From an uncultured Spirochaetota bacterium (GTDB lineage: Bacteria; Spirochaetota; Brevinematia; Brevinematales; JAOACQ01), in contig CAWAOD010000010.1 of assembly GCA_963783575.1 (NCBI GenBank), positions 32,001 through 96,000 of the forward strand: a stretch of DNA of 64,000 bases, read 5' to 3'. A program made the translations under genes and the position numbers. The notes beneath the pieces are model-generated. The model did not search any database, was not told the origin of the DNA, and was given only the letters and a program-made list of their open reading frames with translations. Shown here one piece after another: positions 38,598 to 54,335 of the stretch. How positions within the stretch are numbered: the first letter of the stretch is position 1; every line of letters starts with the position of its first letter.

Positions 38598-38740
38598 TGT
38601 GGAAATGTCAAGAGTTTTTCCCATATCTGCGCTCGGGTAATTTCCCACCCCTTCCACAAGAGTATTTCCCATATGCTTCACAAGAGTTTTCCCCATACCT
38701 TCCACGTGAGTATTTCCCATAGTGAGGAGGCAAAGAATGG

Positions 38741-39490
38741 TTACTCAACCTCCTTATTCAAATTTTGTATTCTGTAAGATTCTCCGCTCAAGTTATAAAT
38801 ATTTGAATGATGTAAAAGCCTATCCAGAAGAGCGGTTGTCATAATCGGGTCTCCCATCATTTCAGCCCAATCCTGAAATCCCTTATTCGATGTTATCACA
38901 ATTGATGTCTTTTCATACAATTCACTTACAAGACTAAAGAATAGATTTGCCTCCTTCTTTTCGATAGGTGTGTAACCTATCTCATCAATGATTAATAAGT
39001 GTGACTTCATCATCCGGTTCAGCCTGAAAGCAGAGCTTCTCTGGATGTCCGCCGTTTTCAGAAACTTAATGAGAGTAGTCATCCTTTCAAAGCAGACAAT
39101 ATATCCCTTTTCAACTGCCCGGATTCCGATACTAATTGCCAGATGCGTTTTCCCCAGCCCCGGAGACCCAAAGAACAACAGGTTATGATGATTATCAATC
39201 CAGCAGAAATCCAATAGCTGTGAAACATCCATTTTAGATATTCCATTCACTTTTTCAAAATTAAAACCTTCCACATCTTTGCGGACCGGGAAGTGTGCTC
39301 CTGCCATATTCCGCTGAAAACGTTTTTCCACTCTATAATTCAATTCCAGAGAAAGCAGCCTCTGCAGAAAACTCAGATAAGACTCTTTTGCCTTTTCAGC
39401 CTCACCAATTTCCTCATCAATCCGTTTTATCATACCCTTCAACCCGAGAGTTGTAAGCGCAGTTATGATTTGTTCTCTTATCTTCAACAT
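38741..39490 (-). CDS. istB: IS21 helper ATPase
   Basis: GSPGLGKT, LIIDEIGY, LDRLLHH. Confidence 0.95.
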   Translation of the reverse strand: MLKIREQIITALTTLGLKGMIKRIDEEIGEAEKAKESYLSFLQRLLSLELNYRVEKRFQRNMAGAHFPVRKDVEGFNFEKVNGISKMDVSQLLDFCWIDNHHNLLFFGSPGLGKTHLAISIGIRAVEKGYIVCFERMTTLIKFLKTADIQRSSAFRLNRMMKSHLLIIDEIGYTPIEKKEANLFFSLVSELYEKTSIVITSNKGFQDWAEMMGDPIMTTALLDRLLHHSNIYNLSGESYRIQNLNKEVE

Positions 39491-41037
39491 TGCCGGCCCC
39501 CGATGGAGTCACAGAAACTCTGGTATTTCCCGATGTCTGATTTAGCTACTTCAAGATAGTGTTCAGGATTCACTGAAGGCCTGACAATCTTTTCAACATT
39601 CAAGGGTATTTCTGCCTTTTCTGTTATAAAACAGTTCAGGTAATTATCCCACAAATCCTTCATGGAATAACTATCACTCTCCAGGCAGTTTGAGATCGCT
39701 TGTGTAAGCTTCCCGGTATCAATTATCTTGTCCCTGAAGTATTTTCTTCCGGAAAGACATTGGTCCCTTACATAACGATTGAACTTCCTGAAATTACATT
39801 CAAGAAAATCCTTCCAGCCGGGAATATCAAAGTACCCGCTTACTTCTTCTTTCAATAACTGCACACTCTTTCCCATTTCCCGGATCATTGCCCTGTTGGT
39901 TACAATCTGCCCCGGAATCACTGAAAGCCGGTATTCGGCGATTTGCTCTCCCGTTATCCTGTCAAAGACAAAAAGCCGACTGCCCGTCTTGTAGATGTCC
40001 ACCGAACCGTTCCTGTATTTTTCGGGAATATCATACTGGCTTGCATCAACTGCGATCCGGCATTTATCGCTTACACTGCGCTCTTCCCTTGCTCCTATCC
40101 TGTCTTTACGGAATATCGAATTCCTGACAGATTGGAGATATGGTCTTTCCGTTTCAATCTCTATCAGTGGTATTTTCATTGTAGCCTGGGATATTCTCCC
40201 GTTGGCTTTTCTTTCCAGCCATTTCATCAGGCTTTCTTCCGCTTCCATTAAACTGTTGAACTCCCGGACTGAGAAGAAACCGTGCTTGATGAATTTGACT
40301 ACGTTTTCAATCTTTCCCTTACTTTCCGGGTCAGCAGGTCGGCACACATACATTTTAAGACCCATTTCCCCGATGAAATACTGAAAGTCTTTCGTGTAGA
40401 TGATATCGCCTGAGTTCTCACTCGCAACCATCGTGCAGTCCTGATCGATGACAAGTTCATGCGGTATCCCGCCCATATATGCGAAACAGTCCAACAGATG
40501 ATTGATAAGGTCTTCTGTCCGGAATGGCCTCTCCTGGAGGGCCGCATACTTAAAACGACTGGCGGATAACACCGCGGCAAATATGTAATACCTTCTGCCA
40601 TATCTGTCGGTATATTGACCGAAATCAAGCTGGAGCTGCTTTCCATATGGCATGTCAGGCACTTTTGTGTAATACCGTCGCTTTTCATTCAAGGTAAGCT
40701 GCCCGCTTTCAATCAGGTAATGTACGAAATTCCTCATCGTATTTTCATTCGCCGGTAGTTTGCCTTTTACCTCCAATAAATAGTCATACAAAGCAGACAT
40801 ATTCAGCCGGATGTAATCATTCTTTGCATATACTTTCAATATGTCTGTTTTTATTCCTTCGAATTCTTTTTCACGGAAAGAGAATTCCATCAGGCTTTTC
40901 TGGTATTCGGAATCGTTCATAGCCCAATATTTTCGGACTGTCTTAATATCTATTGACAGTTCCCGGGATACACCATTTTTACTTTTCCCCAAAAGTTTCA
41001 GTTTTTTTATGTCCTGATACATAATATTTTTCACCAT
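39484..41037 (-). CDS. istA: IS21 transposase
   Basis: QLDFG, SRFKY, DQD, PESKGKIE. Confidence 0.95.
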   Translation of the reverse strand: MVKNIMYQDIKKLKLLGKSKNGVSRELSIDIKTVRKYWAMNDSEYQKSLMEFSFREKEFEGIKTDILKVYAKNDYIRLNMSALYDYLLEVKGKLPANENTMRNFVHYLIESGQLTLNEKRRYYTKVPDMPYGKQLQLDFGQYTDRYGRRYYIFAAVLSASRFKYAALQERPFRTEDLINHLLDCFAYMGGIPHELVIDQDCTMVASENSGDIIYTKDFQYFIGEMGLKMYVCRPADPESKGKIENVVKFIKHGFFSVREFNSLMEAEESLMKWLERKANGRISQATMKIPLIEIETERPYLQSVRNSIFRKDRIGAREERSVSDKCRIAVDASQYDIPEKYRNGSVDIYKTGSRLFVFDRITGEQIAEYRLSVIPGQIVTNRAMIREMGKSVQLLKEEVSGYFDIPGWKDFLECNFRKFNRYVRDQCLSGRKYFRDKIIDTGKLTQAISNCLESDSYSMKDLWDNYLNCFITEKAEIPLNVEKIVRPSVNPEHYLEVAKSDIGKYQSFCDSIGGRQC

Positions 41038-41163
41038 TCCTGCCTTCCTTTAATGAATTTTCATTAAAGTTTAACTTCTATTTCCCCCTATGGGAAATCT
41101 GTTTGTGACAGGTATGGGAATTTCATTTATTGCTACCCTGGTAAATTAGTTTATCATTTCCAC

Positions 41164-41413
41164 GTAAACGGAGAAGAAGAAAAAGTTTTTCCTGCGCTCC
41201 TCGGGTTCGCCCAAGAACAGCAAGGAGAAAAGCTACGGCTGCGGTGCTCAGGCTTCGCCACATTTGCCTTTGGCATCTTTTTTGCTAATTTTGAAAATTA
41301 ATGAAAAGGGTTATGAAATGAAATGCTTTCAAATATTTAAAAGCCGGTTCTGGAATTGCAAAAAAGACGCCAATCGTTAACGCGAACGGCAAACGTCGCC
41401 AAGCCGCACCGTT
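41164..41413 (+). repeat. attC-like inter-cassette repeat 1 (5'-truncated by IS21; hybrid of type A and type B)
   Basis: Starts mid-repeat with type-A sequence (AGTTTTTCCTGCGCTCCTCGGGTTCGCCC), continues with type-B core, ends AGCCGCACC-GTT. Confidence 0.8.
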
Positions 41414-41480
41414 AGCTGAAATGTGCGGGAAAATGAATATTTATAAATCGCAGCATCCTTGCTGCGAAAAAGGAGCGAAT

Positions 41481-42710
41481 ATGTATAATAACAAAGAAAA
41501 TGGTACTTTTCATACAGGTGATTTCGTCAGTTATAACGCATGCGTTGGATATAATGGAACAAACGATCTTGAAACATATGAAATTGGATATGATATTGCA
41601 GTAAAGCAATTAATTAATTCGACTAAGTCTAGCCATATTCCAGTTGATGCTATTATTTATCCTATTGCATTTTGTGCCAGACAAAAGCTTGAATTATTTT
41701 TAAAAGATATGATTAAACATTTAGGCTATATTAAATATCTTATAAATAACTGTGAGAAAGAAAACTTAAAGTTAAAACATGAATTAGATAAATTATTTCA
41801 AAAGTTTTCAGAATTGACTCTTATTGATTCAAGATGCCAAAAAGATATAACTATAATAGAAAAATTTGTGAAAGATTTTCATGATATTGATCCAACAGGA
41901 CAAACATTTAGATATCCAGAAAGTACAGAAAATACTCAACATTTAATAGATTTATCATGTATTAATATTATTGACTTTGAAAAAATATACATTCCTTTTA
42001 GTGCATATTGTGAAAAATTTAGAGTTATGATTGAATTTTTAATTGAAGAATACATACAAAAAACTTTTATTGATGGTGTATCAAGAAATGATATTTTTGA
42101 AATTTCAAAAATGCTTCCTCAAAGATATGATTGGGGTAAACCTGAATTTTTGGTTATAAAGAAACAGATTATGGAAAAATTCAAAATTAGCTCAAATAAA
42201 TTTTCAAAAGTTTTAAATATTATACAAAAACATACTTATTTTTCATTAAATATTGGAATTGAAAATAAAATAAAAACTATATCAAGTTCAGAATTCAACA
42301 ATTATTTGGGATTATACTCGGATTTTATTAAGAGAATTGAAAATGAGTCATTTAATAAAGTTCAAAATGAAATTTCAAACAAAATAATTAAATTATTACC
42401 TAAAAAAGTAATTTATTCTTTATGTTCTTTGAAAGAAATTGGAAATCAAAATTTATATCCTGAATATCATGAGCAATTATTCACATATTATTCAAAATTA
42501 AATTTATTTTCTATTGTATTTGATAGATTAGTTAGGACCGGTTATCTTCTGTTTTATCTTAAAAAAGGTTTATTAGCTTGTGGGCAAAAAACTTTATTAG
42601 AGGAATTGGAGCAATTTGTAAAGAGTAATCCACATTTATTAGACAGTTATGATATCAGTAGACGGCCTGCCATTACAGAAGTTGATTTCAATGAATTATT
42701 TAAAAAATAA
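41481..42710 (+). CDS. Hypothetical cassette protein, possibly HEPN-like fold
   Basis: AAGGAG RBS before 41481; YPIAFCARQKLELFLK...KHEL...DPTGQTFRYP. Confidence 0.6.
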   Translation: MYNNKENGTFHTGDFVSYNACVGYNGTNDLETYEIGYDIAVKQLINSTKSSHIPVDAIIYPIAFCARQKLELFLKDMIKHLGYIKYLINNCEKENLKLKHELDKLFQKFSELTLIDSRCQKDITIIEKFVKDFHDIDPTGQTFRYPESTENTQHLIDLSCINIIDFEKIYIPFSAYCEKFRVMIEFLIEEYIQKTFIDGVSRNDIFEISKMLPQRYDWGKPEFLVIKKQIMEKFKISSNKFSKVLNIIQKHTYFSLNIGIENKIKTISSSEFNNYLGLYSDFIKRIENESFNKVQNEISNKIIKLLPKKVIYSLCSLKEIGNQNLYPEYHEQLFTYYSKLNLFSIVFDRLVRTGYLLFYLKKGLLACGQKTLLEELEQFVKSNPHLLDSYDISRRPAITEVDFNELFKK

Positions 42711-42773
42711 CTGTGTTATAACAACGCCATCCTTGGCTTTGCTAGTTGTGCCGACTTCCCGCACCCTTCAGCT

Positions 42774-43016
42774 AACAGCGGCTATATCGCTCCGGTGCTC
42801 GAAAAAACTTTTCAGGGCGTAACGGAGGAGAAGAGAAAAGTTTTTCCTGCGCTCCTCGGGTTCGCCCGTTTTTGATTTTGTAAAAAGAGAAAGGAGTTCA
42901 ACTTGACTATGATGATTATTAAAATAGAAGTCATTATTTACGGGCTCACCACATTTTCGGGCCTAAGAGCGCGGGGCTAGCTCTAAGGCCCGAAAACGTC
43001 GTATAGCCGCACCGTT
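42774..43016 (+). repeat. attC-like repeat 2 (type A, 243 bp)
   Basis: AAC-AGCGGCTATA ... TATAGCCGC-ACC-GTT terminal stem. Confidence 0.9.
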
Positions 43017-43069
43017 CTACGCCATTACGGGCACAAGCTTGTTTTAAAAAAAAAGTGAGGTTAAATAAT

Positions 43070-43648
43070 ATGGAAAAAAAGAAGAATATCTATCAATTGA
43101 AAATCAATTTAATGGATACAAAACCACCAATTTGGAGAAGAATTTTAGTTGAATCAAATGTAAAATTACCTGATTTACATAAAATTATTCAATCAACAAT
43201 GGGCTGGACGAACTCACATTTGCATGATTTTATCATTAATGGAATGACTTACACATTGCCTGATGAAGACAATGAATTGGAATATATAGATTACAGAAAA
43301 ATAAAATTAAATAAACTAATTGAAAATGAAGGTGCAAAATTCAACTATATTTATGATTTTGGTGATGATTGGAACCACAAAATTGAACTTGAAGAAATAT
43401 TGCCATATGATTCTGCTAGAAAATATCCTATATGTATAGCTGGAAAAAGAAGATGTCCACCAGAAGATTGTGGTGGGACAGGTGGTTTTGAAGACTTACT
43501 TAAAATTATTAAAGATCCAAAAAATGAAGAATATGAAGATATGATGAATTGGTTACCTGATAATTTTGATCCTGAACATTTTAATATAAATGAAATAAAT
43601 GAATTATTACAAAAAAAGGATTATGGTTGCATAACAATTTATGATTAA
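43070..43648 (+). CDS. Plasmid pRiA4b ORF-3 family protein
   Basis: PPIWRRI, GW.NSHLH, YDFGDDW, CPPEDCGG. Confidence 0.9.
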   Translation: MEKKKNIYQLKINLMDTKPPIWRRILVESNVKLPDLHKIIQSTMGWTNSHLHDFIINGMTYTLPDEDNELEYIDYRKIKLNKLIENEGAKFNYIYDFGDDWNHKIELEEILPYDSARKYPICIAGKRRCPPEDCGGTGGFEDLLKIIKDPKNEEYEDMMNWLPDNFDPEHFNINEINELLQKKDYGCITIYD

Positions 43649-43674
43649 ACATTGTGCCCGTAACGGCGCAGAAC

Positions 43675-45468
43675 GGCCATGTAGAAAAAGTTAATTTCAG
43701 GTAATAATCCTCCATTCCCAAACAGTTTGTTTTTTTTGATCTGTCTGGAATCACTTTTTTATATAAAACCGGGCTGAATTTACCGGCAAAACTGCTTTTA
43801 TTCCATCACTATGCCATTATATACCTCCATAGACCTGAATTTTCCCGATATTGTGCACAGTATTATATAATACCCATTGAATATTCACTTTTACCTTTCC
43901 CCTCAGCGTAAATCGATCCATACCTTTACATGCCCTTATATTCCCGAATACAGGCTCAACTATAGCCATTCTTTTCGCATAAAGCTTTCTGCCTTCAGGT
44001 GTATCTATGAACTTTCTCATTTCGTCCGAGTAATGTCTGTTATCCGCATTCAATGGCCTTTGCAACATCGTGTTGCTGTCGAACTAACGTTCGACGGCCT
44101 TTTTGGCTATATAGTAGCTCTTATGGAACCTCCGTGTTCCCAAGGTTGTTTGATTTTATTTTAATTCTTCAGGAAGTCTTTCCGGAATGGACAATTACGG
44201 CAGGACAATAACCGGCAGATATACTTCGCGTATGTAATATGATTCACCGTATGGTTATTTCTGAACCGGAGTTCCTCTCCTTTCTTGCATATATAGACAT
44301 TCCTTATTGGGTCATATTGAAAATCATCGATTGTATACTGCCCTTTCTTCGCAGGCTTATGTCTGTCAGCGGTTTCAAACCTGCAATCGCGCTTCCTGAA
44401 ATTCGTATCCGGGATGACCGGTTTCATACCGTTTTGCGAAATATATTTCAGGTTCTTTTCGCTGAAATAATTGGTGTCCGCGGTGATTATTTTATCCTTT
44501 AAATCTTTTCCCAATTCTACTTTTGCTTTACGGATCATCCCTTTCAGGAATTCCCCCTCAGACCCGCTCCCAAAAGCTTCGGGATATACCACAACCTGAT
44601 ATTTCGAATCCACGACCGATAAGCCATTGTATCCCTGGATTACACCGTGCGATGATTTTATTTTCGCGCTCTGGTTATCAGTGACATTGGACTGCTTTTC
44701 ACCATGCCTTGATTTATCTTTCGGTTTTTCACTTTCCAGAAACTTTTCTATCTTTTCAGCTTTCTTTAAAATCTTCTCGATCCGTGCCAGATCTTTTTCC
44801 TTATCCTTCTCAGGAAAATCGCCGTCCTGATCACGCTTTTCATGTTCATCAAGCATTTCCTTAACCAGGTTTTCCAGCTTCTCTTTTTTCTTCTTCAAAT
44901 CCTTAAATGTTCCGCTCCATTCCTTTGATGCATTTGACGATAGTTTGCACCCGTCCAGCGCGAACATATCCCCGCCTATGAGATTCAGTTCGTCACAAAC
45001 CATCAATGTATTCAGGAATACGGTATTTATCTCATTTTTCATCGAAGAAACAAAATCGGCGATTGAAGTAAAGTGCGGTATTGAATTGGCGGAAAGGGCT
45101 TTGGCTATAATATTCGTTTTACACAAATACTCGATTTCACGTGATGTAAAAATACCGCGGGAATAGCTGTAGAGTATTATTTTGAGCATAACCCGCGGAT
45201 TATAAGCCGGGGCACCGGTAGCATCGTTCTTATACTTATTCTCAAAGATTTTAAGATCAATTCTGTTGTCAACAAGAAAACTGAGTGTATATTCGAATGT
45301 TCCCGGTATAATCTGCTCATCGAATGAGACAGGTATGAGTTCCATTTGATCGTAATTAACTTTCTTATATCTTGCCATAATTGCTTTTACCTCTTGATTT
45401 TATTTCCAATATATTTTAAAGTATATACGATATTCTGTACATGAATGACGGACTTTTTCTACAGGCTC
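43675..45468 (-). mobile_element. IS1182-family element, copy 1
   Basis: IRs GGCCATGTAGAAAAAGT / ACTTTTTCTACAGGCTC; AAC duplicated on both sides. Confidence 0.9.
43817..45378 (-). pseudogene. IS1182 transposase split into 405-aa and 83-aa ORFs
   Basis: GAPAYNP, SREIE, LDG.K, ADTNY in ORF1; RMAIVEPVFGNI in ORF2. Confidence 0.8.
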
Positions 45469-45685
45469 AACAAGGCATAGCTGTTGCGCTCCGTCCTCAC
45501 TAGCGTTCCGGGCGGTGCTCAGCCTTCGGCACATTTGCCTTTGTCATCTTTTTTGCAGAATTTGAAATTTAATGAAAAGGGTTATAAAAATGAAATACTT
45601 TATTATATTTAAAGTCTGGTTCTGGAATTGCAAAAAAGACACCAATCGCTAACGCGACCGGCAAACGTCAGCTATGCCTGCCGTT
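45469..45685 (+). repeat. attC-like repeat 3 (type B, 217 bp)
   Basis: AAC-AAGGCATAGCTG ... CAGCTATGCCT-GCC-GTT. Confidence 0.85.
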
Positions 45686-45727
45686 AAACGAAAGGCATGG
45701 CAGACTTTAATTATAAAGAGGTATTTT

Positions 45728-46957
45728 ATGAAAAATTTTATGATTATTTATGCACTACTTATGATATCAATTTTTTCTAATTTCATTTATTCAAATGATA
45801 TCCTGAATCAAACTAACAAATTTCCTTCAAATATTTTAGATTTTTATCTTAACCTCCCTAATGAACCTTTATTAGGTGATGTAGGTACAGATATTCAAAA
45901 TAGAATTGATTATTTAACTAATAATAATAACCATGATTCTTATTCACCAATAATAATTGATATAAAAAATGGATTTATTTCAATGAGATCTGAAATCAAT
46001 CATAATTATTTTATATTGAATGAATATGCTTTATTTACAACTAAAAATTTAAAATACATAGCTTGTGTTTTTAGGATGAACGATGCTGAATTTCCAGGCT
46101 ATATTATTTCCAATACTTTTATTATTTATCAATTCACAAATAATAATTTCATAGATGTAACAAAAGCTGTATTTCCAAGAATAGAATATTCTATGTTTTT
46201 TGATGATTTCGACATGAAAGGTAAGTATCTTTCAAATATACCAAATGATAAAATTTTCTATAAATTGCCTAGGTTTGGAACAAAGATTGAAGCAAATATT
46301 GAAATAAGTGAATTAACAACCCAAAGAAATTATGATTGGTCAGAGCTATATCTTGCATTTAAAACTAACAAAATAAATATTGATTTTAATTCAAAAAGTG
46401 GAGAATTTTATATAGTAAAATCAAAAGAGCAAAAGTATTTCAAGAATAATGATGAAATAGCATTATATTCTTGTAAAAATTATGTAAATATCATCAAACC
46501 AATAGAAGAAATAATTTCCTCAACATCAAATTTTAACTTTCATAATAAATTACCTGTTAATAATGTATATGAAGCATATTTTAGTAAAAGTGTATATGTA
46601 AGAATTGAAATAGAACCTTTTGATTCAAAAAATAAAGTATATACAAATGATCATGATTATAAAGATTTTGTAAATGGTGAGCGTATTTTCGGTTGTAACT
46701 TAGATAAACCTTTTCATGAATTTAAATCAGCAGACTTGTTTTATGACAATAAAAAATTTACAATTCCTACTAAGAATTTATATAATCCTTTTTCAATTAA
46801 TGGAAAAAATTGTATTAAATTTCTTAAAATTAAAGATGATTTTTATATTCTTGGTGATTTCTCAGATGGTGCTGGTGCTTATTCAATTTTATGGAAATTA
46901 TATGAGAATAAAATTTCTATAATAAAAATATTCAATTTATATGGTGATTTATTTTAG
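45728..46957 (+). CDS. Secreted hypothetical cassette protein
   Basis: GAGG RBS; signal peptide MKNFMIIYALLMISIFSNFIYS; YKLPRFGT; FSDGAGAY. Confidence 0.75.
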   Translation: MKNFMIIYALLMISIFSNFIYSNDILNQTNKFPSNILDFYLNLPNEPLLGDVGTDIQNRIDYLTNNNNHDSYSPIIIDIKNGFISMRSEINHNYFILNEYALFTTKNLKYIACVFRMNDAEFPGYIISNTFIIYQFTNNNFIDVTKAVFPRIEYSMFFDDFDMKGKYLSNIPNDKIFYKLPRFGTKIEANIEISELTTQRNYDWSELYLAFKTNKINIDFNSKSGEFYIVKSKEQKYFKNNDEIALYSCKNYVNIIKPIEEIISSTSNFNFHNKLPVNNVYEAYFSKSVYVRIEIEPFDSKNKVYTNDHDYKDFVNGERIFGCNLDKPFHEFKSADLFYDNKKFTIPTKNLYNPFSINGKNCIKFLKIKDDFYILGDFSDGAGAYSILWKLYENKISIIKIFNLYGDLF

Positions 46958-46992
46958 CCACTTAATGTTTGATACTGCCAGGCCCTTCGTTT

Positions 46993-47232
46993 AACCGTGG
47001 CTATATCGCTCCGGTGCTCGAAAAAACTTTTCAGGGCGTATGGAAATGTCAAGAGTTTTTCCTGCGCTCCTCGGGTTCGCCCGTTTTAGATTTTGGTAAA
47101 AAGAGAAAGGAGTTCAAATTGACTATGATGATTAATAAAATAAAGGTCATTATTTACGGGCTCACCAAACCCGTAAACCTAAGCGCGCGGGGCTGGCGCT
47201 AAGGTTTGCGGGCTTCGTATAGCCTCACCGTT
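46993..47232 (+). repeat. attC-like repeat 4 (type A variant, 240 bp)
   Basis: AAC-CGTGGCTATA ... TATAGCCTC-ACC-GTT. Confidence 0.9.
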
Positions 47233-47261
47233 ATATGCAATGCTGGCTGCACGGATTATTC

Positions 47262-47290
47262 TTGACAATATGGCTGATTGTATGTATTAT
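47262..47290 (+). promoter_or_regulatory. Sigma70 promoter of the brnTA cassette
   Basis: TTGACA-17 bp-TATTAT; ATG 7 nt downstream, no RBS. Confidence 0.75.
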
Positions 47291-47297
47291 TATATGT

Positions 47298-47573
47298 ATG
47301 ATATTTGAATGGGATGAAAATAAAAACAAAACTAACATTGAAAAACATAATATTTCTTTTGATTATGCCCAGCTTGCATTTCTTGATGATAAAAGAATTA
47401 TTGCGGAAGACTTGAAACATAGTGATACTGATGAAAAACGTTACTTTTGCTTTGGAAAAATAGATGATACAATCATTACTGTTAGATTTACTTACAGAAA
47501 AAATAGAATAAGAATATTCGGAGCTGGTGCATGGCGAGAAGGAAGGAGGATATATGAACAAGAAAACAATTAA
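47298..47573 (+). CDS. BrnT-family toxin (DUF497)
   Basis: MIFEWDENKN..NIEKH.ISF; HS..E.R; VRFT.R..IRI. Confidence 0.9.
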   Translation: MIFEWDENKNKTNIEKHNISFDYAQLAFLDDKRIIAEDLKHSDTDEKRYFCFGKIDDTIITVRFTYRKNRIRIFGAGAWREGRRIYEQENN

Positions 47574-47811
47574 ATATACTAAAGCACCAAAAGAAATATC
47601 TGATGCCATTAACAATTCAATAATAATAAAGGATTTCTTACCATCTCCTAAAGAACTGATACTTAAAGAAAAAACAAAAAAAATTACTATTAATTTAAGT
47701 GAAAAAAGTTTAATTTTTTTCAAAAATTCTGCTAAAAAAAATCATGTTTCATATCAACAAATGATTAAAGAAATTCTTGATAAATATTCAGATTATTATA
47801 AATACAATTAA
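47554..47811 (+). CDS. CopG/BrnA-like antitoxin
   Basis: Overlaps the toxin; GGAGG RBS; KITINL...FFK..A...SYQQMI RHH-like. Confidence 0.8.
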   Translation: MNKKTIKYTKAPKEISDAINNSIIIKDFLPSPKELILKEKTKKITINLSEKSLIFFKNSAKKNHVSYQQMIKEILDKYSDYYKYN

Positions 47812-47833
47812 AGAGTGCAGCCAAACTGCGTAT

Positions 47834-48076
47834 ATCAGCGGCTATATCGCTCCGGTGCTCGAAAAAACTTTTCAGGGCATAACGAAGAAGAAGAAAAAGT
47901 TTTTCCTGCGCTCCTCGGGTTCGCCCGTTTTAGATTTTGGTAAAAAGAGAAAGGAGTTCAAATTGACTATGATGATTAATAAAATAAAGGTCATTATTTA
48001 CGGGCTCACCACATTTTCGGGCCTAAGAGCGCGGGGCTAGCTCTAAGGTCCGAAAACGTCGTATAGCCACACCGTT
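47834..48076 (+). repeat. attC-like repeat 5 (type A, 243 bp; AAC changed to ATC)
   Basis: ATC-AGCGGCTATA ... TATAGCCAC-ACC-GTT; near-identical to repeat 2. Confidence 0.9.
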
Positions 48077-48115
48077 GTACGCAAGTCTGGCCGCAGCTTT
48101 TATTTATACTAACTA

Positions 48116-48144
48116 TTGACATTAGTAACTATATATGTTAGTAT
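48116..48144 (+). promoter_or_regulatory. Sigma70 promoter of the higBA cassette
   Basis: TTGACA-17 bp-TAGTAT; ATG at 48150; ATACTAAC/GTTAGTAT inverted repeat overlaps it. Confidence 0.7.
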
Positions 48145-48149
48145 TATAT

Positions 48150-48431
48150 ATGATAAAGTCTTTTAAAGATGACGAAACGAGTTTAATTTGGTTTGGTATT
48201 AAATCAAGAAAATTACCACCAAATATTCAAGATGTTGCTCGACGAAAATTAAGAATGCTTAATAATGCTCATGCTTTATCTGATTTATTAATACCACCAT
48301 CAAATAAATTAGAATCTTTAAAAGGAAATAGAAAAGGTCAACATAGCATTAGAATAAATGATAAATATAGAATTTGTTTCATTTGGAAATCTAATGATGC
48401 CTATAGTGTTGAAATTATTGATTATCATTAA
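48150..48431 (+). CDS. higB: HigB (RelE/ParE-family) toxin
   Basis: MIKSF; PPSNKLE.L.G.RKGQHSIRINDKYRICF; VEIIDYH. Confidence 0.9.
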   Translation: MIKSFKDDETSLIWFGIKSRKLPPNIQDVARRKLRMLNNAHALSDLLIPPSNKLESLKGNRKGQHSIRINDKYRICFIWKSNDAYSVEIIDYH

Positions 48432-48449
48432 ATATTAAAGAGGTAAAAT

Positions 48450-48761
48450 ATGACTGAAAGATTAAAAAACATACATCCTGGTGAAATCTTAAAAGAAGAA
48501 TTTTTATTGCCTTTAAATATTACAGCTTATAGACTATCAAAAGAAACAGGCATACCGCAAACGGCAATATCTGAAATAGTAAAAGAAAAAAGAAGAATCA
48601 CTGCACCTGTAGCCTTAAAATTCTCAAAATTTTTTGGTACTACTCCTCAATTTTGGTTAGGTCTTCAAGATGATTATGATCTAGAAGAGGAAGAAATCCA
48701 TATAAAAAAAGAATTGGATAATATTCATTCAATAAAAGACTTACATTTAGTTAATGCCTAA
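48450..48761 (+). CDS. higA: HigA antitoxin
   Basis: IHPGEILKEEFL; FWLGLQ..YDL. Confidence 0.9.
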   Translation: MTERLKNIHPGEILKEEFLLPLNITAYRLSKETGIPQTAISEIVKEKRRITAPVALKFSKFFGTTPQFWLGLQDDYDLEEEEIHIKKELDNIHSIKDLHLVNA

Positions 48762-48793
48762 TTCTAGAACTTGCTGCACCGCCATCGCCTAAC

Positions 48794-50588
48794 GGCCATG
48801 TAGAAAAAGTTAATTTCAGGTAATAATCCTCCCTTTCCAAACAGTATGTTTTTTTTGATCTGTCTGGAATTACTTTATTTTTATAAAACCGGGCTGAATT
48901 TACCGGCAAAACTGTTTTTATTCCATCACTATGCCATTATATCCCTCCATAGACCTGAATTTTCCCGATATTATGCACAGTATTATATAATACCCATTGA
49001 ATATTCACTTTTCCCTTTCCCCTCAGCGTAAATCGATCCATACCTTTACATGCCCTTATATTCCCGAATACAGGCTCAACTATAGCCATTCTTTTCGCAT
49101 AAAGCTTTCTGCCTTCAGGCGTATCTATGAACTTTCTCATTTCGTCCGAGTAATGTCTGTTATCCGCATTCAACGGCCTTTGCAACATCGTGTTGCTGTC
49201 GAACTAACGTTCGACGGCCTTTTTGGCTATATAGTAGCTCTTATGGAACCTCCGTGTTCCCAAGGTTGTTTGATTTTATTTTAATTCTTCAGGAAGTCTT
49301 TCTGGAATGGACAATTACGGCAGGCCGATAACCGGCAGATATACTTCGCGTATGTAATATGATTCACCGTATGGTTATTTCTGAACCGGAGTTCCTCTCC
49401 TTTCTTGCATATATAGACATTCCTTATTGGGTCATATTGAAAATCATCGATTGTATACTGCCCTTTCTTCGCAGGCTTATGTCTGTCAGCGGTTTCAAAC
49501 CTGCAATCGCGCTTCCTGAAATTCGTATCCGGGATGACCGGTTTCATACCGTTTTGCGAAATATATTTCAGGTTCTTTTCGCTGAAATAATTGGTGTCCG
49601 CAGTGATTATTTTATCCTTTAAATCTTTTCCCAATTCTACTTTTGCTTTACGGATCATCCCTTTCAGGAATTCCCCCTCAGACCCGCTCCCAAAAGCTTC
49701 GGGATATACCACAACCTGATATTTCGAATCCACGACCGATAAGCCATTGTATCCCTGGATTACACCGTGCGATGATTTTATTTTCGCGCTCTGGTTATCA
49801 GTGACATTGGACTGCTTTTCACCATGCCTTGATTTATCTTTCGGTTTTTCACTTTCCAGAAACTTTTCTATCTTTTCAGCTTTCTTTAAAATCTTCTCGA
49901 TCCGTGCCAGATCTTTTTCCTTATCCTTCTCAGGAAAACCGCCGTCCTGATCACGCTTTTCATGTTCATCAAGCATTTCCTTAACCAGGTTTTCCAGCTT
50001 CTCTTTTTTCTTCTTCAAATCCTTAAATGTTCCGCTCCATTCCTTTGATGCATTTGACGATAGTTTGCACCCGTCCAGCGCGAACATATCCCCGCCTATG
50101 AGATTCAGTTCGTCACAAACCATCAATATATTCAGGAATACGGTATTTATCTCATTTTTCATCGAAGAAACAAAATCGGCGATTGAAGTAAATTGCGGTA
50201 TTGAATTGGCGGAAATGGCTTTGGCTATAATATTCGTTTTACACAAATATTCGATTTCACGTGATGTAAAAATGCCGCGGGAATAGCTGTAGAGTATTAT
50301 CTTCAGCATAACCCGCGGATTATAAGCCGGGGCACCGGTAGCATCGTTCTTATACTTATTCTCAAAGATTTTAAGATCAATTCTGCTGTCAACAAGAAAA
50401 CTGAGTGTATATTCAAATGTTCCCGGTATAATCTGCTCATCGAATGAGACAGGTATGAGTTCCATTTGATCGTAATTAACTTTCTTATATCTTGCCATAT
50501 TTTCTTCTCCGACTTGATTTTATTTACAATATATTTTAAAGTATATACGATATTCTGTACATGAATGACGGACTTTTTCTACAGGCTC
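48794..50588 (-). mobile_element. IS1182-family element, copy 2
   Basis: Same IRs as copy 1; AAC duplicated; scattered SNPs relative to copy 1. Confidence 0.9.
48937..50498 (-). pseudogene. IS1182 transposase, same split as copy 1
   Basis: ORFs 49281-50498 and 48937-49188. Confidence 0.8.
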
Positions 50589-50771
50589 AACAACAGCTAT
50601 ACCGCTGCGGTGCTCGACTCCCCTGGCACTACGTCTGTGCTCCTCGGGTGCAGCTAGTTTTTTGTATAAAAAGTAAAATGGGGTTAAAATTATTTATGAT
50701 TATAATTAAAGAGAATACTTTGGTAAAAGAGGCTGCACTAAGCCTCACGGGCTTCGTATAGCCGCACCGTT
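50589..50771 (+). repeat. attC-like repeat 6 (divergent type C, 183 bp)
   Basis: AAC-AACAGCTATAC ... GTATAGCCGC-ACC-GTT; shares GGTGCTCGA, GCTCCTCGGGT and GGGCTTCGTATAG modules with type A. Confidence 0.8.
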
Positions 50772-50801
50772 GTACGAAAGAATAAAGCAAGGGGTAAATA
50801 T

Positions 50802-51707
50802 ATGGAAGTTATTGATGAAATAAAAACTTTAATGTTTAATAAAAATTGGAAAATTAAAATTTTATCTATTTAATATTTAAATAATTTAAAAGATAATTTG
50901 GAAAAAAATTTCAAGGTACTGGAAAATAAAGAGTTTGTTGATTATATCAGTAAATGTTTTAGTTTTAATTCCAAAGAAATAGTAAATTATGCAAAGTCAC
51001 TAATTATTATTGCGATACCGAGCCCAATAATATCTATCACTGTAATTTGGAATAATATTGAGAAAAAAATAATTATTCCACCAGCATATATCAATATGCG
51101 TTCGGCAATTGAAGAAGCGGAGATATTATTATCGAATATATTAAATAAAAATAATCATAGTATAAAAAGAGTTGCAATACCTGAAAAATTATTAGCAGTT
51201 CATAGTGGTTTGGGAAAATATGGTAAAAATAATATATGCTATATTGAAGGGATGGGTAGTTTTTTCAGATTAGTCTCATTTATAAGTAATATTCAAGAGA
51301 TTAATTCTGATTGGGATGATATTAATATTATGGAATCATGCAGCAAATGTAATATCTGCTTAAAAAGATGCCCAACTGGTGCGATTAGAGAAGATAGATA
51401 CTTAATCGATGGCTATAAATGCCTGACATTTTTTAATGAAAGACCAGGGGAATTTCCTAAATGGATAGATAATTCAGCTCATCACTGTCTGGTTGGTTGT
51501 TTATTCTGCCAGGATAAGTGTCCACAAAATAAAAAAGTTATAAATAATATAAATGAATGTGAATTCTTCAGTGAAAGAGAATTAATAGCAATTATGAATA
51601 TAAAAGAATTTGAGAAATTGGATATAAATATAAGGTTCAAATTAATAAAATTGAATATGGATGTATACTATAATGTCTTATCGAGGAATTTAAAAGTATT
51701 ATTATGA
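50802..51707 (+). CDS. Epoxyqueuosine reductase (QueG)-like 4Fe-4S protein with in-frame TAA at 50871
   Basis: SGLGKYGKNNI; CSKCNICLKRCP; GCLFCQDKCP; ATG 50802 is in frame with ORF 50898-51707. Confidence 0.75.
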
Positions 51708-51730
51708 AAATGCCCCGCCCATCGTACAAC

Positions 51731-52426: not shown

Positions 52427-53188
52427 ATGTTATTTAAAAATAGTATGAGATTTATATTATTAACGCTATTTTTTATCAATGTATTAATTTCGTGCAGTAG
52501 CAAATTTATTAAAATGGATAAGACAGGCATTAGTATCAAAGAGACGGATTTAATTGACAAGCAAGAAGTAGAAAGAATAACAAAAAAGATAAATGATATC
52601 GAAGAAACATTTAATACTATATTTAAAACAAGATTACAATTTACAATTGAATTAGTTAAACAGAATGAAACAGATGCATGCATAAAAATAATAGATGGTA
52701 AGGAAGGAATACTTCTTAATGATAAATATATTAAAAATTATTTAGACACTGAGTTAGCAATAACTCTTTCGCATGAATATTTTCATATTTATCAAAATAA
52801 TAAAATACAACCTGAAAAATGGAATTATACAATTGTTCGAAGATTATATGAAGAAGGTTCGGCTTGTTTTGCTCCATCATTAATTATCAGTGGGATGGAA
52901 GATTGGAAATATATATCACCTTTTAGAAATGATAATAAAGAGTTCATAGCATTTGAAAAATATGAGGGGGAAGCAAAAGAATATATATTAACAAATTTGT
53001 ATAGTAAAGATATTGAGGTGGATAGACATTTATTTTCAGGAAATATGAATTTTTCTAAACCTTGGCCTCCAAGAATTGGATATTATTTTGGTTATAAATT
53101 AATAAAAAAAATGTATCAACAAAATGGAATGAAAGTATTTCAATTAAGTGAGTATGAAATTATTAAAGAGATTAATAATGAGTTATAG
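52427..53188 (+). CDS. Putative Zn-dependent protease lipoprotein (DUF2268-like)
   Basis: LISC lipobox; HEYFH; EEGSA; IGYYFGY. Confidence 0.7.
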   Translation: MLFKNSMRFILLTLFFINVLISCSSKFIKMDKTGISIKETDLIDKQEVERITKKINDIEETFNTIFKTRLQFTIELVKQNETDACIKIIDGKEGILLNDKYIKNYLDTELAITLSHEYFHIYQNNKIQPEKWNYTIVRRLYEEGSACFAPSLIISGMEDWKYISPFRNDNKEFIAFEKYEGEAKEYILTNLYSKDIEVDRHLFSGNMNFSKPWPPRIGYYFGYKLIKKMYQQNGMKVFQLSEYEIIKEINNEL

Positions 53189-53194
53189 AAGGCG

Positions 53195-53372
53195 CCTTCC
53201 GCGCCTCGGCATTGTGCCATATTTGCCTTTGTAACAGTTATTGCAGGTTTTGTTATTTTATAAAAAATGATATAAAATGGAATACTTTAATCTAAATGAA
53301 AGCTGGTTCTGGAATTGCAAAAAAGACAATAATCGCTGGCACGAACGGTACATTGCCAAGCTATACCGTCGC
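53195..53372 (+). repeat. Degenerate type-B attC-like repeat
   Basis: ATTTGCCTTTGT...GGTTCTGGAATTGCAAAAAAGAC...ACC-GTC (GTT changed); 5' end lost. Confidence 0.7.
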
Positions 53373-53410
53373 ACGGCATGCTATACAAATAATATAAAAG
53401 GAGAAAAATA

Positions 53411-54022
53411 ATGTTGAAAGAATATATCGCCGTTTCAATATTTAAACCATCATCTATTTATGTTAATTTATTTCATGATAAAAGAAAGGTACTAATATCC
53501 TTCTCAATGCTAATGGTATTAGGGATTCTCTATACTATAACTGTAATATTTGGTTATAAAAATGGTTTTGGTGCGATAGTTAAACCTATCTTATCAATTC
53601 CAAGTAATAAATATTATTTTTATGAAATATTTTTCGGAATTCCTGTTTTTTTTCTAATATCAATAGTTTTTGCCGGAACAAGTAGATTGTTATCAACATT
53701 ATTAGGCGGCGAAGGTTCTTTTGAGAATAATTTTGTTATTTATTGTACTTCAGCATTTATTCCAACTCTTTTAACTCTATGGTTACCAGAAACATTATTG
53801 ATTGTCTTTTTTCCGGATTTACGGGCAACTCCGCTTGACGGTTTTAAAATATTACCTGCTTATATTGATTTTATTCGACAAATATTAGGTGTGTTATGGC
53901 CGATGTTTATTTCAGTAATTGGAATCAGAGTATCGGAAAATGTAACTTACCTAAAGAGCAGTATCATTACTTTTATTTCTTTTATTTTATGTGGAATTAT
54001 TATGATAATATTTATTCGATAA
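53411..54022 (+). CDS. Yip1-like multi-pass membrane protein
   Basis: AGGAG RBS; IFKP N-terminus; LLGGEGSF; five TM segments. Confidence 0.7.
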   Translation: MLKEYIAVSIFKPSSIYVNLFHDKRKVLISFSMLMVLGILYTITVIFGYKNGFGAIVKPILSIPSNKYYFYEIFFGIPVFFLISIVFAGTSRLLSTLLGGEGSFENNFVIYCTSAFIPTLLTLWLPETLLIVFFPDLRATPLDGFKILPAYIDFIRQILGVLWPMFISVIGIRVSENVTYLKSSIITFISFILCGIIMIIFIR

Positions 54023-54050
54023 TATTATATATTGCACGCCGCCAACAACC

Positions 54051-54278
54051 ATCCCTCCATAGACCTGATTTTACCAATGGATTCGGCAGGCTCACCAAAA
54101 GTATTATACATAGTATTATAGATCATCCACTGAATATAACTTTTCCCAACTCCAATTGTTTGTAATTGACTTTCTTAAACCTTGCCATAATTGCTTTTAC
54201 CTCTTGATTTTATTTACAATATATTTTAAAGTATACACGATATTCCGTACATGCATGACGGACTTTTTCTACAGTCTC
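54051..54278 (-). mobile_element. Internally deleted IS1182 remnant
   Basis: Transposase 3' end fused to its 5' end; terminal ACTTTTTCTACAGTCTC, then AAC-AGCGGCTATA. Confidence 0.8.
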
Positions 54279-54335
54279 AACAGCGGCTATAACGCTCATA
54301 AATATCTTGTATTCTTGCTGTTATGCGGTATTTAA

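Follow-up and report, generated by a model that had tools for sequence, protein, structure and literature searches.

The window, the whole 64,000-nucleotide stretch analysed from the genome of an uncultured Spirochaetota bacterium (G000), contains an integron-like array of six co-oriented gene cassettes, C1 to C6, set between palindromic AAC...GTT sites; orientation is uniform among the paired cassettes of every array scanned. Cassettes, arms, reading frames and attC-like bodies described here all lie on the + strand. An IS21-family element (38639–41123) sits just upstream of a mosaic, left-truncated attC-like site (41167–41413) that closes with the C1 crossover point, G|TT. The C1 start arm, comprising R' and an extension (41411–41431), has its counterpart in an end arm (42756–42776) whose last bases are AAC (R''); the C1 reading frame (41421–42710) encodes at most 429 amino acids that match no Pfam or NCBIfam family, and its true start is probably an ATG near 41481, outside the arm. 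A type A attC-like body (42774–43016), measuring 243 nt from AAC to GTT and containing an 11-bp inner (L) stem, leads into C2, in which a pRiA4b ORF-3-like gene (PF07929; 43055–43648) lies between a start arm at 43014–43036 and an end arm at 43652–43674, the latter again ending in AAC. C3, with arms at 45683–45703 and 46975–46995, carries a single ORF of ~410 amino acids without a family and is followed by a 240-nt type A body (46993–47232). The C4 cargo (start arm 47230–47252, end arm 47815–47836) is a BrnT/BrnA-like toxin-antitoxin pair, and beyond it lie another type A body of 243 nt (47834–48076), C5 (48074–48793) with a HigB/HigA-like pair and C6 (50769–51730) with an iron-sulphur (QueG-like) gene. 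The letters and coordinates claimed for the C1–C4 arm pairs in a preliminary description are borne out in the window, with the qualification that the C4 arms, although correctly placed, need one gap to pair and end in ATC instead of AAC. That description was also right that the C5 arms match poorly and those of C6 over nine bases; C4, C5 and C6 are degenerate members of the array.

Three of the six cassettes are separated from their own attC by IS1182, a circumstance the preliminary description had overlooked: directly after the ends of C2, C5 and C6 lies an IS1182-like insertion at AAC and not an attC body. The element at C2 (43675–45468, − strand) is flanked by a duplicated AAC and splits the C2 arm from its own type B body (45469–45685); a second copy (48794–50588, − strand) occupies the AAC of C5, with a 183-nt type C body following at 50589–50771, and a left-end remnant marks the AAC of C6. 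The transposase is divided between two ORFs whose best family is NF033551 (216 and 60 bits, against a cut-off of 270 set for the whole protein), and DUF772 and DDE_Tnp_1_6 domains are present together with terminal inverted repeats. No Rfam family reaches its gathering score in the window, where counts from a promoter and terminator scan are near the shuffle level and promoter-like sites near chance. Read by eye rather than with a covariance model, the 60 listed sites contain no conserved bulged (extrahelical) G on L'', and a bulged T appears in type A sites only.

For the comparison of start and end arms, cassette ends were placed by the attC body or IS end alone, with the arms playing no part, and an initial loose PWM scan that proved too noisy was replaced by a tightened version. 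The pooled set of 79 distinct cassettes, drawn from G000 and eight relatives, matches at 7.33 of the 10 positions from 12 to 21 within a cassette versus 3.03 between cassettes permuted within genomes (p=5e-5). The six window cassettes alone give 6.3 of 11 within versus 3.7 between over positions 12–22 (permutation p=0.011). Results are given for all spans and for those up to 1.5–1.6 kb because long unpaired spans are partly composite; one 2.2-kb apparent failure consists of two cassettes, each with matched arms. Across the G000 genome, 28 start/end pairs match at 7.4 positions within versus 3.4 between (p ~1e-5), and the 22 of these no longer than 1.5 kb at 8.05 versus 3.44; 20 of those 22 have A/G at position 11. 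The relative G011, from which two spans terminating at an IS right end were left out, contributes 14 distinct cassettes (8.0 versus 3.4, positions 12–21), and seven further genomes contribute 49 (6.8 versus 2.9). The proposal that arms pair within a cassette beyond the level of shuffled pairs thus holds in each of these larger sets.

The A/G mismatch at position 11, ascribed earlier to all four quoted arm pairs, extends to 71 of the 79 cassettes, with a Watson-Crick pair in one, and position 8 is G:C in 78. Positions 12–21 have little sequence consensus, yet they covary within cassettes, and all four Watson-Crick pairs are found there. Collapsing the 79 cassettes to 35 arm clusters preserves the pattern (7.0 versus 2.7 matches; A/G in 30 of 35). 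Homologous cassettes that are 82% alike differ by three compensated and no one-sided arm changes, those 88% alike by two and none, and a 260-nt cassette family contains compensated changes at positions 6, 9, 10 and 13; one homologous pair in G000 has two one-sided changes. Compensation, together with the near-invariant position-11 mismatch, indicates that constraint on the arms continues.

These data bear on the earlier suggestion that the arms merely reflect how cassettes are made. In its fullest form, new genes would be captured in an empty chassis that can be used again (arm, hairpin ... hairpin, arm, attC), leaving complementarity as an inherited feature dispensable for recombination. A single arm pair, mostly followed by a small hairpin, does head unrelated cargoes at nine starts in three of 401 genomes, among them a Fur/bacterioferritin/catalase-peroxidase/DUF4491 cluster, a DUF3842 cluster and several other genes, so the arms pair within a cassette as described but are not private to one. 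Short arm-bearing cassettes of 131–295 nt occur, and in 21 of 22 G000 cassettes the cargo ORF stops at least 23 bases before the cassette end. Because homologous cassettes compensate arm changes after birth, a cassette-making origin is insufficient by itself, even though the reuse of an arm pair is compatible with the idea; the continuing constraint at position 11 and the many chassis that 35 clusters among 79 cassettes would demand further make the purely inherited version improbable.

Canonical arrays of the same phylum provide the control. The median stem is 18 here and 8 in 70 canonical IntI cassettes, which come from seven loci of one family, nine other IntI loci having no usable array; stems in arm-bearing cassettes span 18–21 bp and reach about 25–29. 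Self-pairing past R'/R'' to 9–11 nt has been described for most cassettes of canonical integrons (PMC2727003). In most cassettes of the array the ~20-base arms exceed the match seen in the canonical control more than twofold. Complementarity between neighbouring cassette ends is not above the shuffled level (68 pairs), suggesting that pairing in the array is not under selection. Cassette length and arm strength are likewise uncorrelated (pooled rho −0.02, n=77), as expected if pairing occurs in the circle.

Equilibrium fold predictions, made without SSB or supercoiling, agree with the earlier proposal that an excised circle folds into a longer hairpin: the predicted difference between circle and array is −10.7 kcal/mol (n=60), compared with −2.2 for canonical cassettes (n=58). 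Predicted R-box pairing over 60 junctions is 0.97 in circles versus 0.46 in arrays, and for C1, C2 and C3 it is 0.98–0.99 versus 0.00–0.06. The position-11 mismatch had been read as a bottom-strand wobble, and in the C1–C3 circles its predicted pairing is indeed 0.83–0.98 on the bottom strand and 0 on the top. The bottom strand also gives the more stable predicted fold in 55 of 60 junctions, and other wobbles at positions 4–18 lean the same way (34 versus 15, p=0.009), although an exposed bottom strand that suffers C-to-T damage could also produce this bias. For the arm duplex alone the predicted bottom-strand gain is only 1.3 kcal/mol, and the R box is predicted to pair on either strand of the circle (0.97 each). 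A role in the transcript, with the cassette mRNA pairing its 5' end to its 3' end, would suit arms that lie in untranslated flanks and a top strand that is also able to pair. Position 11, however, is A-C on the transcribed strand, the wobbles favour the other strand and the stem is anchored exactly on the crossover triplet, which together render this explanation very unlikely.

The unit of movement runs from GTT to GTT, as previously proposed, because identical G011 cassettes sit behind different neighbours: these copies of 587–589 nt start at G|TT and end at the next GTT, with identity beginning 1–2 bases before GTT. G000 also contains a duplicated block of two cassettes whose outer arms differ, and it likewise begins at G|TT. 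In G000 and 10 relative loci, the G|TT of the first cassette lies 70–164 bases past the recombinase gene, and an attI-like site consisting of inverted arm, 6-bp centre and arm is present in G000, G011 and several others; at five of the 18 loci listed, no attI-like start was found after the recombinase gene. The positions 1–11 consensus recurs in this double-stranded site, which invites the explanation that the arms serve as inverted binding sites in double-stranded form, of the invertase or transposon-end type, acting without folding. Covariation at positions 12–21 despite little consensus, the uniform orientation in scanned arrays and the movement of units from GTT to GTT all speak against that explanation, leaving it with very little probability.

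A Xer-like recombinase without the I2 insertion of integron integrases precedes the arrays, and its N-terminus is HARP-like; that this enzyme is not IntI had escaped the preliminary description. Patch II is 58–62 residues from H-x-x-R, versus 100 in IntI, and alignment to VchIntIA (2a3v) leaves a gap of ~42 residues. The intact G011 enzyme scores 212 bits to TIGR02249 (cut-off 265), and G000 contains no IntI over the cut-off. Scores of 183 bits to TIGR02224 and TIGR02225 fall below the cut-offs of ~330 that define housekeeping XerC/D, and in the tree the Xer-like genes of G000 itself fall outside (100/100), the cassette recombinase being nearer IntI. No long gap interrupts the alignment of the catalytic domain with XerA-type enzymes, and NF040815 is over its cut-off. 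Of 113 homologues, 70 match HARP (PF07443) at E<=0.05 (best 2.4e-6), the G011 protein itself being unmatched, and the top matches to an N-terminal model include MotA-C, UvsW and SMARCAL1 HARP at middling Z of 4.1–5.4, within the common range. The G000 copy has two frameshifts and lies on a contig (contig C5) other than that of the window array, in an assembly that is 90% complete. Four short loci at contig ends aside, 16 newly fetched recombinase loci were scanned, of which eight have arrays, one a single site and seven none; a metagenome pattern scan yielded 10 loci, only one resembling a true site, with no paired end in view, and none of these entered the cassette set. The enzyme likely reads the arms, the link between the two being adjacency.

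The explanation favoured here, held with moderate confidence, is that the arms form the outer half of each cassette's own recombination site, folded from the bottom strand, cut at G|TT by the I2-less Xer-like enzyme and marked for strand by the T-G pair. It builds on arms that covary, a unit running from GTT to GTT, arrays headed by an I2-less enzyme and the arm/6-bp centre/arm attI-like site. In the excised circle the two cassette ends would meet and the arms zip into an 18–21-bp bottom-strand stem, such that the complete site would exist only in the circle, with the R box mostly open in the array according to the fold models. The recombinase, without I2, would then cut the folded site at G|TT. 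Positions 2–11 (TT-RNN-YG-MM-A) are the putative binding arm of the enzyme, because their YG motif is found again in attI and in the inner L stem, and positions 12–21 a putative stem clamp. Position 11, through its fixed T-G wobble, likely marks which strand is used, in place of the strand choice made by extrahelical bases and I2 in IntI: the A of the start arm would form a normal A:T pair once the cassette occupies attI, while the C at the end would spoil the top-strand fold (A-C) and be tolerated on the bottom (T-G). Such a system would favour the retention and re-insertion of intact cassettes over their excision. If sites in the array do fold poorly, the start of excision is outside the reach of this model.

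A pre-excision role for the arms, compatible with the favoured explanation, would come from a pre-formed four-way junction, a possibility we regard as doubtful. A cassette's own arms would pair across the gene in single-stranded array DNA, and two inner L stems with a flank-to-flank duplex would complete a Holliday-like junction, in which a single exchange of strands, at the two AA|C points, would yield a fully paired circle and a deleted array; the I2 helix would be unneeded, and reading or annealing of the junction would fall to the HARP-like domain. The geometry of the strands, derived by hand, permits this, own-arm R pairing is predicted at 0.90–0.99 on the bottom strand in five of six whole-cassette folds (at most 0.09 in the array), and the HARP matches in 70 homologues and the middling MotA-C, UvsW and SMARCAL1 HARP fold matches would be in line with such a domain. 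The full form is nevertheless predicted in only one of six folds, as are both L stems, longer cassettes do not have stronger arms, and pairing across 0.6–3.7 kb of SSB-coated DNA is kinetically doubtful. The duplicated G000 block with different outer arms further implies that strict one-cassette guidance is not universal.

Several features are shared with canonical integrons (IntI, attI, attC): promoter-poor cassettes in one orientation, AAC...GTT hairpin sites, a G|TT crossover, the order of recombinase, attI-like site and array, toxin-antitoxin cassettes and detached (CALIN-like) arrays. The closest type is the sedentary chromosomal integron with intI co-oriented with the array, as in Treponema denticola. 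Unlike canonical integrons, the present system has an 18–21-bp stem with a fixed T-G at position 11, versus ~8 in the same phylum, sites of 90–245 nt versus 57–141 published, an I2-less enzyme with a HARP-like N-terminus, and no conserved extrahelical G on L'' in the listed sites. Xer/dif sites have two inverted arms around 6 bp, and the attP substrate of CTX phage is a folded single strand. The XerA-type catalytic domain and the attI-like inverted arms around 6 bp resemble the Xer recombinases (XerC/D, archaeal XerA), whereas a dedicated enzyme at the head of a cassette array, distinct from the XerC/D-like genes of the genome, does not. PMC9345347 notes that tyrosine recombinases integrate CTX into dif, and it also treats SEs, with imperfect 19-bp terminal inverted repeats, strand-biased circles and tyrosine recombinases. 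Terminal inverted repeats and tyrosine recombinases are common to SEs and the cassettes, for which circles are a prediction. SEs, unlike the cassettes, encode their own four genes and leave a donor copy, without an attC-like hairpin or array; the cargo here is passive and the arms differ from cassette to cassette. A literature search, mostly of open-access journals, found no account of 18–21-bp arms on cassettes, of a cassette recombinase with a HARP domain or of attC as a target of IS1182.

The I2 helix has been credited with letting a tyrosine recombinase use single-stranded sites (PMC7790495), and integron detection tools demand it (PMC4889954, PMC9176274). The visibly shuffled arrays here follow an I2-less enzyme and have a longer covarying stem and a fixed wobble. 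Close homologues of that enzyme occur in 71 of 301 sampled genomes of the phylum, versus 36 with canonical IntI, which suggests that I2-based screens miss a large cassette reservoir. Tentatively, the system may represent a second, I2-less integron lineage, sister to IntI, in which zipper arms pre-assemble a Holliday-like junction that HARP-Xer resolves in one step, the T-G wobble replaces extrahelical bases and an arm-plus-hairpin chassis captures whole chromosomal operons; if true, this would expose a visible route to the birth of gene cassettes. PMC4889954 describes cassette genesis as unknown, and the fact that unrelated operons share one arm pair is relevant to it. The arms may also serve as simple handles on strand choice and on direction, whether insertion or excision.

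Six cassettes (C1–C6) lie in the same orientation at window positions 41,411–51,730, separated by attC-like bodies of 183–243 nt running from AAC to GTT. Among the genes they carry are a pRiA4b-ORF3-like one, two pairs (BrnT/BrnA-like and HigB/HigA-like), one for an iron-sulphur protein, and two orphans. Upstream, the array is truncated by an IS21-family element, and decayed cassettes prolong it at 52427–54300 (a DUF2268 gene, a type-B site with GTC for GTT, a Yip1 gene, and an IS remnant ending in AAC and an L stem, the inner stem of the attC-like body). No recombinase was found adjoining this array, and an Rfam search of the window returned no family. The IS21 left end (38598–38722) contains three repeats at 24-bp spacing; a 22-nt motif preceding it also occurs in one type-A attC-like body and has many genomic copies.

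The start of each cassette (R' plus an extension, here termed the arm and numbered from the first base of GTT) was compared with the reverse complement of its own end. Starts were called from the right end of the attC-like site and ends from its left end or an IS end, the arms themselves never being used; the window arm sequences quoted in the preliminary description are exact. Over positions 12–22, 28 start/end pairs from G000, the genome holding the window, match at 7.4 of 11 positions within a cassette versus 3.4 between cassettes (p ~1e-5), and those no longer than 1.5 kb (22 pairs) at 8.05 versus 3.44. For the six cassettes of the window alone, the values are 6.3 versus 3.7 (p=0.011). Some long non-pairing spans are composites, and one of 2.2 kb comprises two cassettes, each with matched arms. 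In G011, a relative with an intact enzyme, 14 distinct cassettes give 8.0 versus 3.4 over positions 12–21. Further regions downstream of recombinase genes were chosen via a protein search for homologues of the G011 recombinase; 16 were newly fetched, of which eight contain arrays, one a single site, and seven none, and seven of the eight yielded 57 cassettes. The earlier proposal that a larger set would show more complementarity within cassettes than between shuffled partners is borne out by 79 distinct pooled cassettes of at most 1.6 kb (7.33 versus 3.03), and collapse to 35 arm clusters still leaves 7.0 versus 2.7. The pooled signal stops past position 21. All four base pairs are seen at positions 12–21, position 8 is G:C in 78 of the 79, and the A/G mismatch at position 11, first noted in the window, recurs in 20/22 of the shorter G000 pairs, 14/14 G011 cassettes, and 71/79 of the pool. 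The first cassette of an Ignavibacteriales locus has the same arm pattern, its end being chosen there by best match. Very short armed cassettes (131–279 nt), some in tandem families, occur at L086 11192–14410, L092 9862, and L093 11775 and 15354. A loose end of sequencing run X1 at window 45678 (one contig, depth ~4) leads from a variant type-B body to another cassette start, which shares the arm consensus.

Canonical IntI arrays of one family in the same phylum (70 distinct cassettes, seven loci, six genomes) pair over 7–8 bases and reach background from position 9, with 2.64 within versus 2.40 between at positions 12–22 (p=0.05); the median stem is 8, versus 18 in arm-bearing cassettes. The self-pairing principle is already known: in published work, most cassettes self-pair out to 9–11 nt (PMC2727003), and the variable four bases of R' may mismatch R'' within arrays (PMC5371416). 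No description of such arm length or of a fixed mismatch was found in the literature searched.

Pairing is also maintained. Arm changes are compensated in 3/3 cases between homologous cassettes of 82% body identity and 2/2 at 88%, and a short cassette family has compensated changes at positions 6, 9, 10, and 13; one homologous G000 pair has two one-sided changes. In 68 pairs, the ends of neighbouring cassettes show no excess of complementarity over shuffled ends, and arm strength shows no relation to cassette length. The constraint bears on the meeting of a cassette's own two ends.

The proposed unit of movement, GTT to GTT, holds in G011, where identical 587–589-nt cassettes sit behind different attC bodies, each copy starting at G|TT and stopping at the next GTT. 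The largest G000 array lies on contig C5, downstream of a co-oriented gene for a tyrosine recombinase (457150–458200; L001, L104). This gene has two frame breaks, attributable to mutation and decay or to sequencing error, such as that of long reads. No IntI above cut-off was found in G000 (assembly 90% complete). Alignment of the recombinase with XerA-type proteins needs no long gap; relative to VchIntIA, the enzyme is ~42 residues short. Intact relatives have 58–62 residues where IntI has 100, the region of the I2 insertion that marks IntI integrases. In a 26-row tree these relatives cluster (91/74, not starred) beside IntI (99/97) and away from three Xer-like rows. Close homologues of the G011 enzyme were found by protein search in 71/301 genomes of the phylum, and 70/113 homologues weakly match HARP (PF07443). 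The structure model is confident overall (pLDDT 90), and its isolated N-terminus gives middling matches to MotA-C, UvsW, and SMARCAL1 HARP. Repeated adjacent pairs of tyrosine recombinase genes on G000 contigs C5 (3150–32371) and C15 (6582–27999) are unrelated to the arrays.

The first cassette begins 70–164 bases past the recombinase gene; several genomes have an inverted arm 6 bp ahead of its TT. This attI-like site is a double-stranded arm-centre-arm, the geometry of Xer/dif sites, with the YG motif that also occurs in cassette arms and in the inner L stem. Extra direct and inverted arm-motif copies resembling accessory sites lie upstream of the core at contig C5:458190–458260, and relatives carry similar repeats.

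Across 60 junctions, the bottom strand of the circular form is predicted to be 10.7 kcal/mol more stable than in-array, with R-box pairing of 0.97 versus 0.46; canonical sites (n=58) gain 2.2 kcal/mol (0.93 versus 0.75). The longer hairpin first suggested for circularised window sites is predicted for C1, C2 (folded with its IS omitted), and C3 (R-box 0.98–0.99, versus ≤0.06 in-array); in C4 and C5 the site does not form. The position 11 mismatch is a bottom-strand wobble, as proposed, with predicted pairing on that strand only. Other wobbles share the bias (34 versus 15, p=0.009), which could come from selection or from damage on the exposed strand; for the arm duplex alone, the advantage of the bottom strand is only 1.3 kcal/mol (71/79). 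On the favored reading, the arm is probably the outer half of a folded site that would be completed in the circle. Positions 2–11 would be the binding arm of the recombinase and positions 12–21 a clamp, and T-G at position 11 would mark the strand for an enzyme unable to dock extrahelical bases, a docking role ascribed to I2 in PMC7790495.

Tyrosine recombinases resolve Holliday junctions. A bolder, rather unlikely addition is that a cassette's arms might also pair across the gene within a single-stranded array, where the two L stems and the flanks would complete a four-way junction that a single strand exchange resolves. Own-arm pairing prevails in 5/6 whole-cassette folds, with in-array R boxes at ≤0.09, but the full junction is predicted in only 1/6, and a duplicated block of two cassettes that begins at a G|TT has outer arms that differ from each other. 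Still more doubtful is that the arms are a birth mark of cassette formation, a reading that rests on one arm pair heading unrelated cargoes (nine starts, 3/401 genomes), including a Fur/bacterioferritin/catalase-peroxidase cluster. This sharing suggests a reusable chassis. The shared pair (L043, L044, L045, L051, L105, L113; G000 contigs C5:473048 and C9:384706) mostly has a small hairpin behind it, and its cargoes, such as the oxidative-stress operon and a DUF3842 cluster, are often large.

IS1182-like elements occupy the ends of C2, C5, and C6 (43675–45468, 48794–50588, and 51731 onward), inserting at the cassette-end AAC, which becomes duplicated. All eight right ends in G000 read AAC, then attC body; of 38 loose left-end matches, 24 were judged true by their terminal letters, with AAC before 23 and cassette-end-like sequence before all 24. 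Related elements occupy the same cassette spot in G011. Both copies in the window carry a split transposase, through decay or long-read error. Insertion parts the arm from its L stem and would immobilise the cassette. Three 100% identical copies of a 1.3-kb element bounded by terminal inverted repeats interrupt the start arm near position 17–18 in three different G011 cassettes (reverse-strand positions L043:-16372, L046:-13233, and L048:-11143).

The arms are real and constrained; the canonical arrays tested lack them, and the recombinase with which they are associated has no I2. Judged by sequence, the system appears integron-like in its working, yet falls outside IntI by the defining test.
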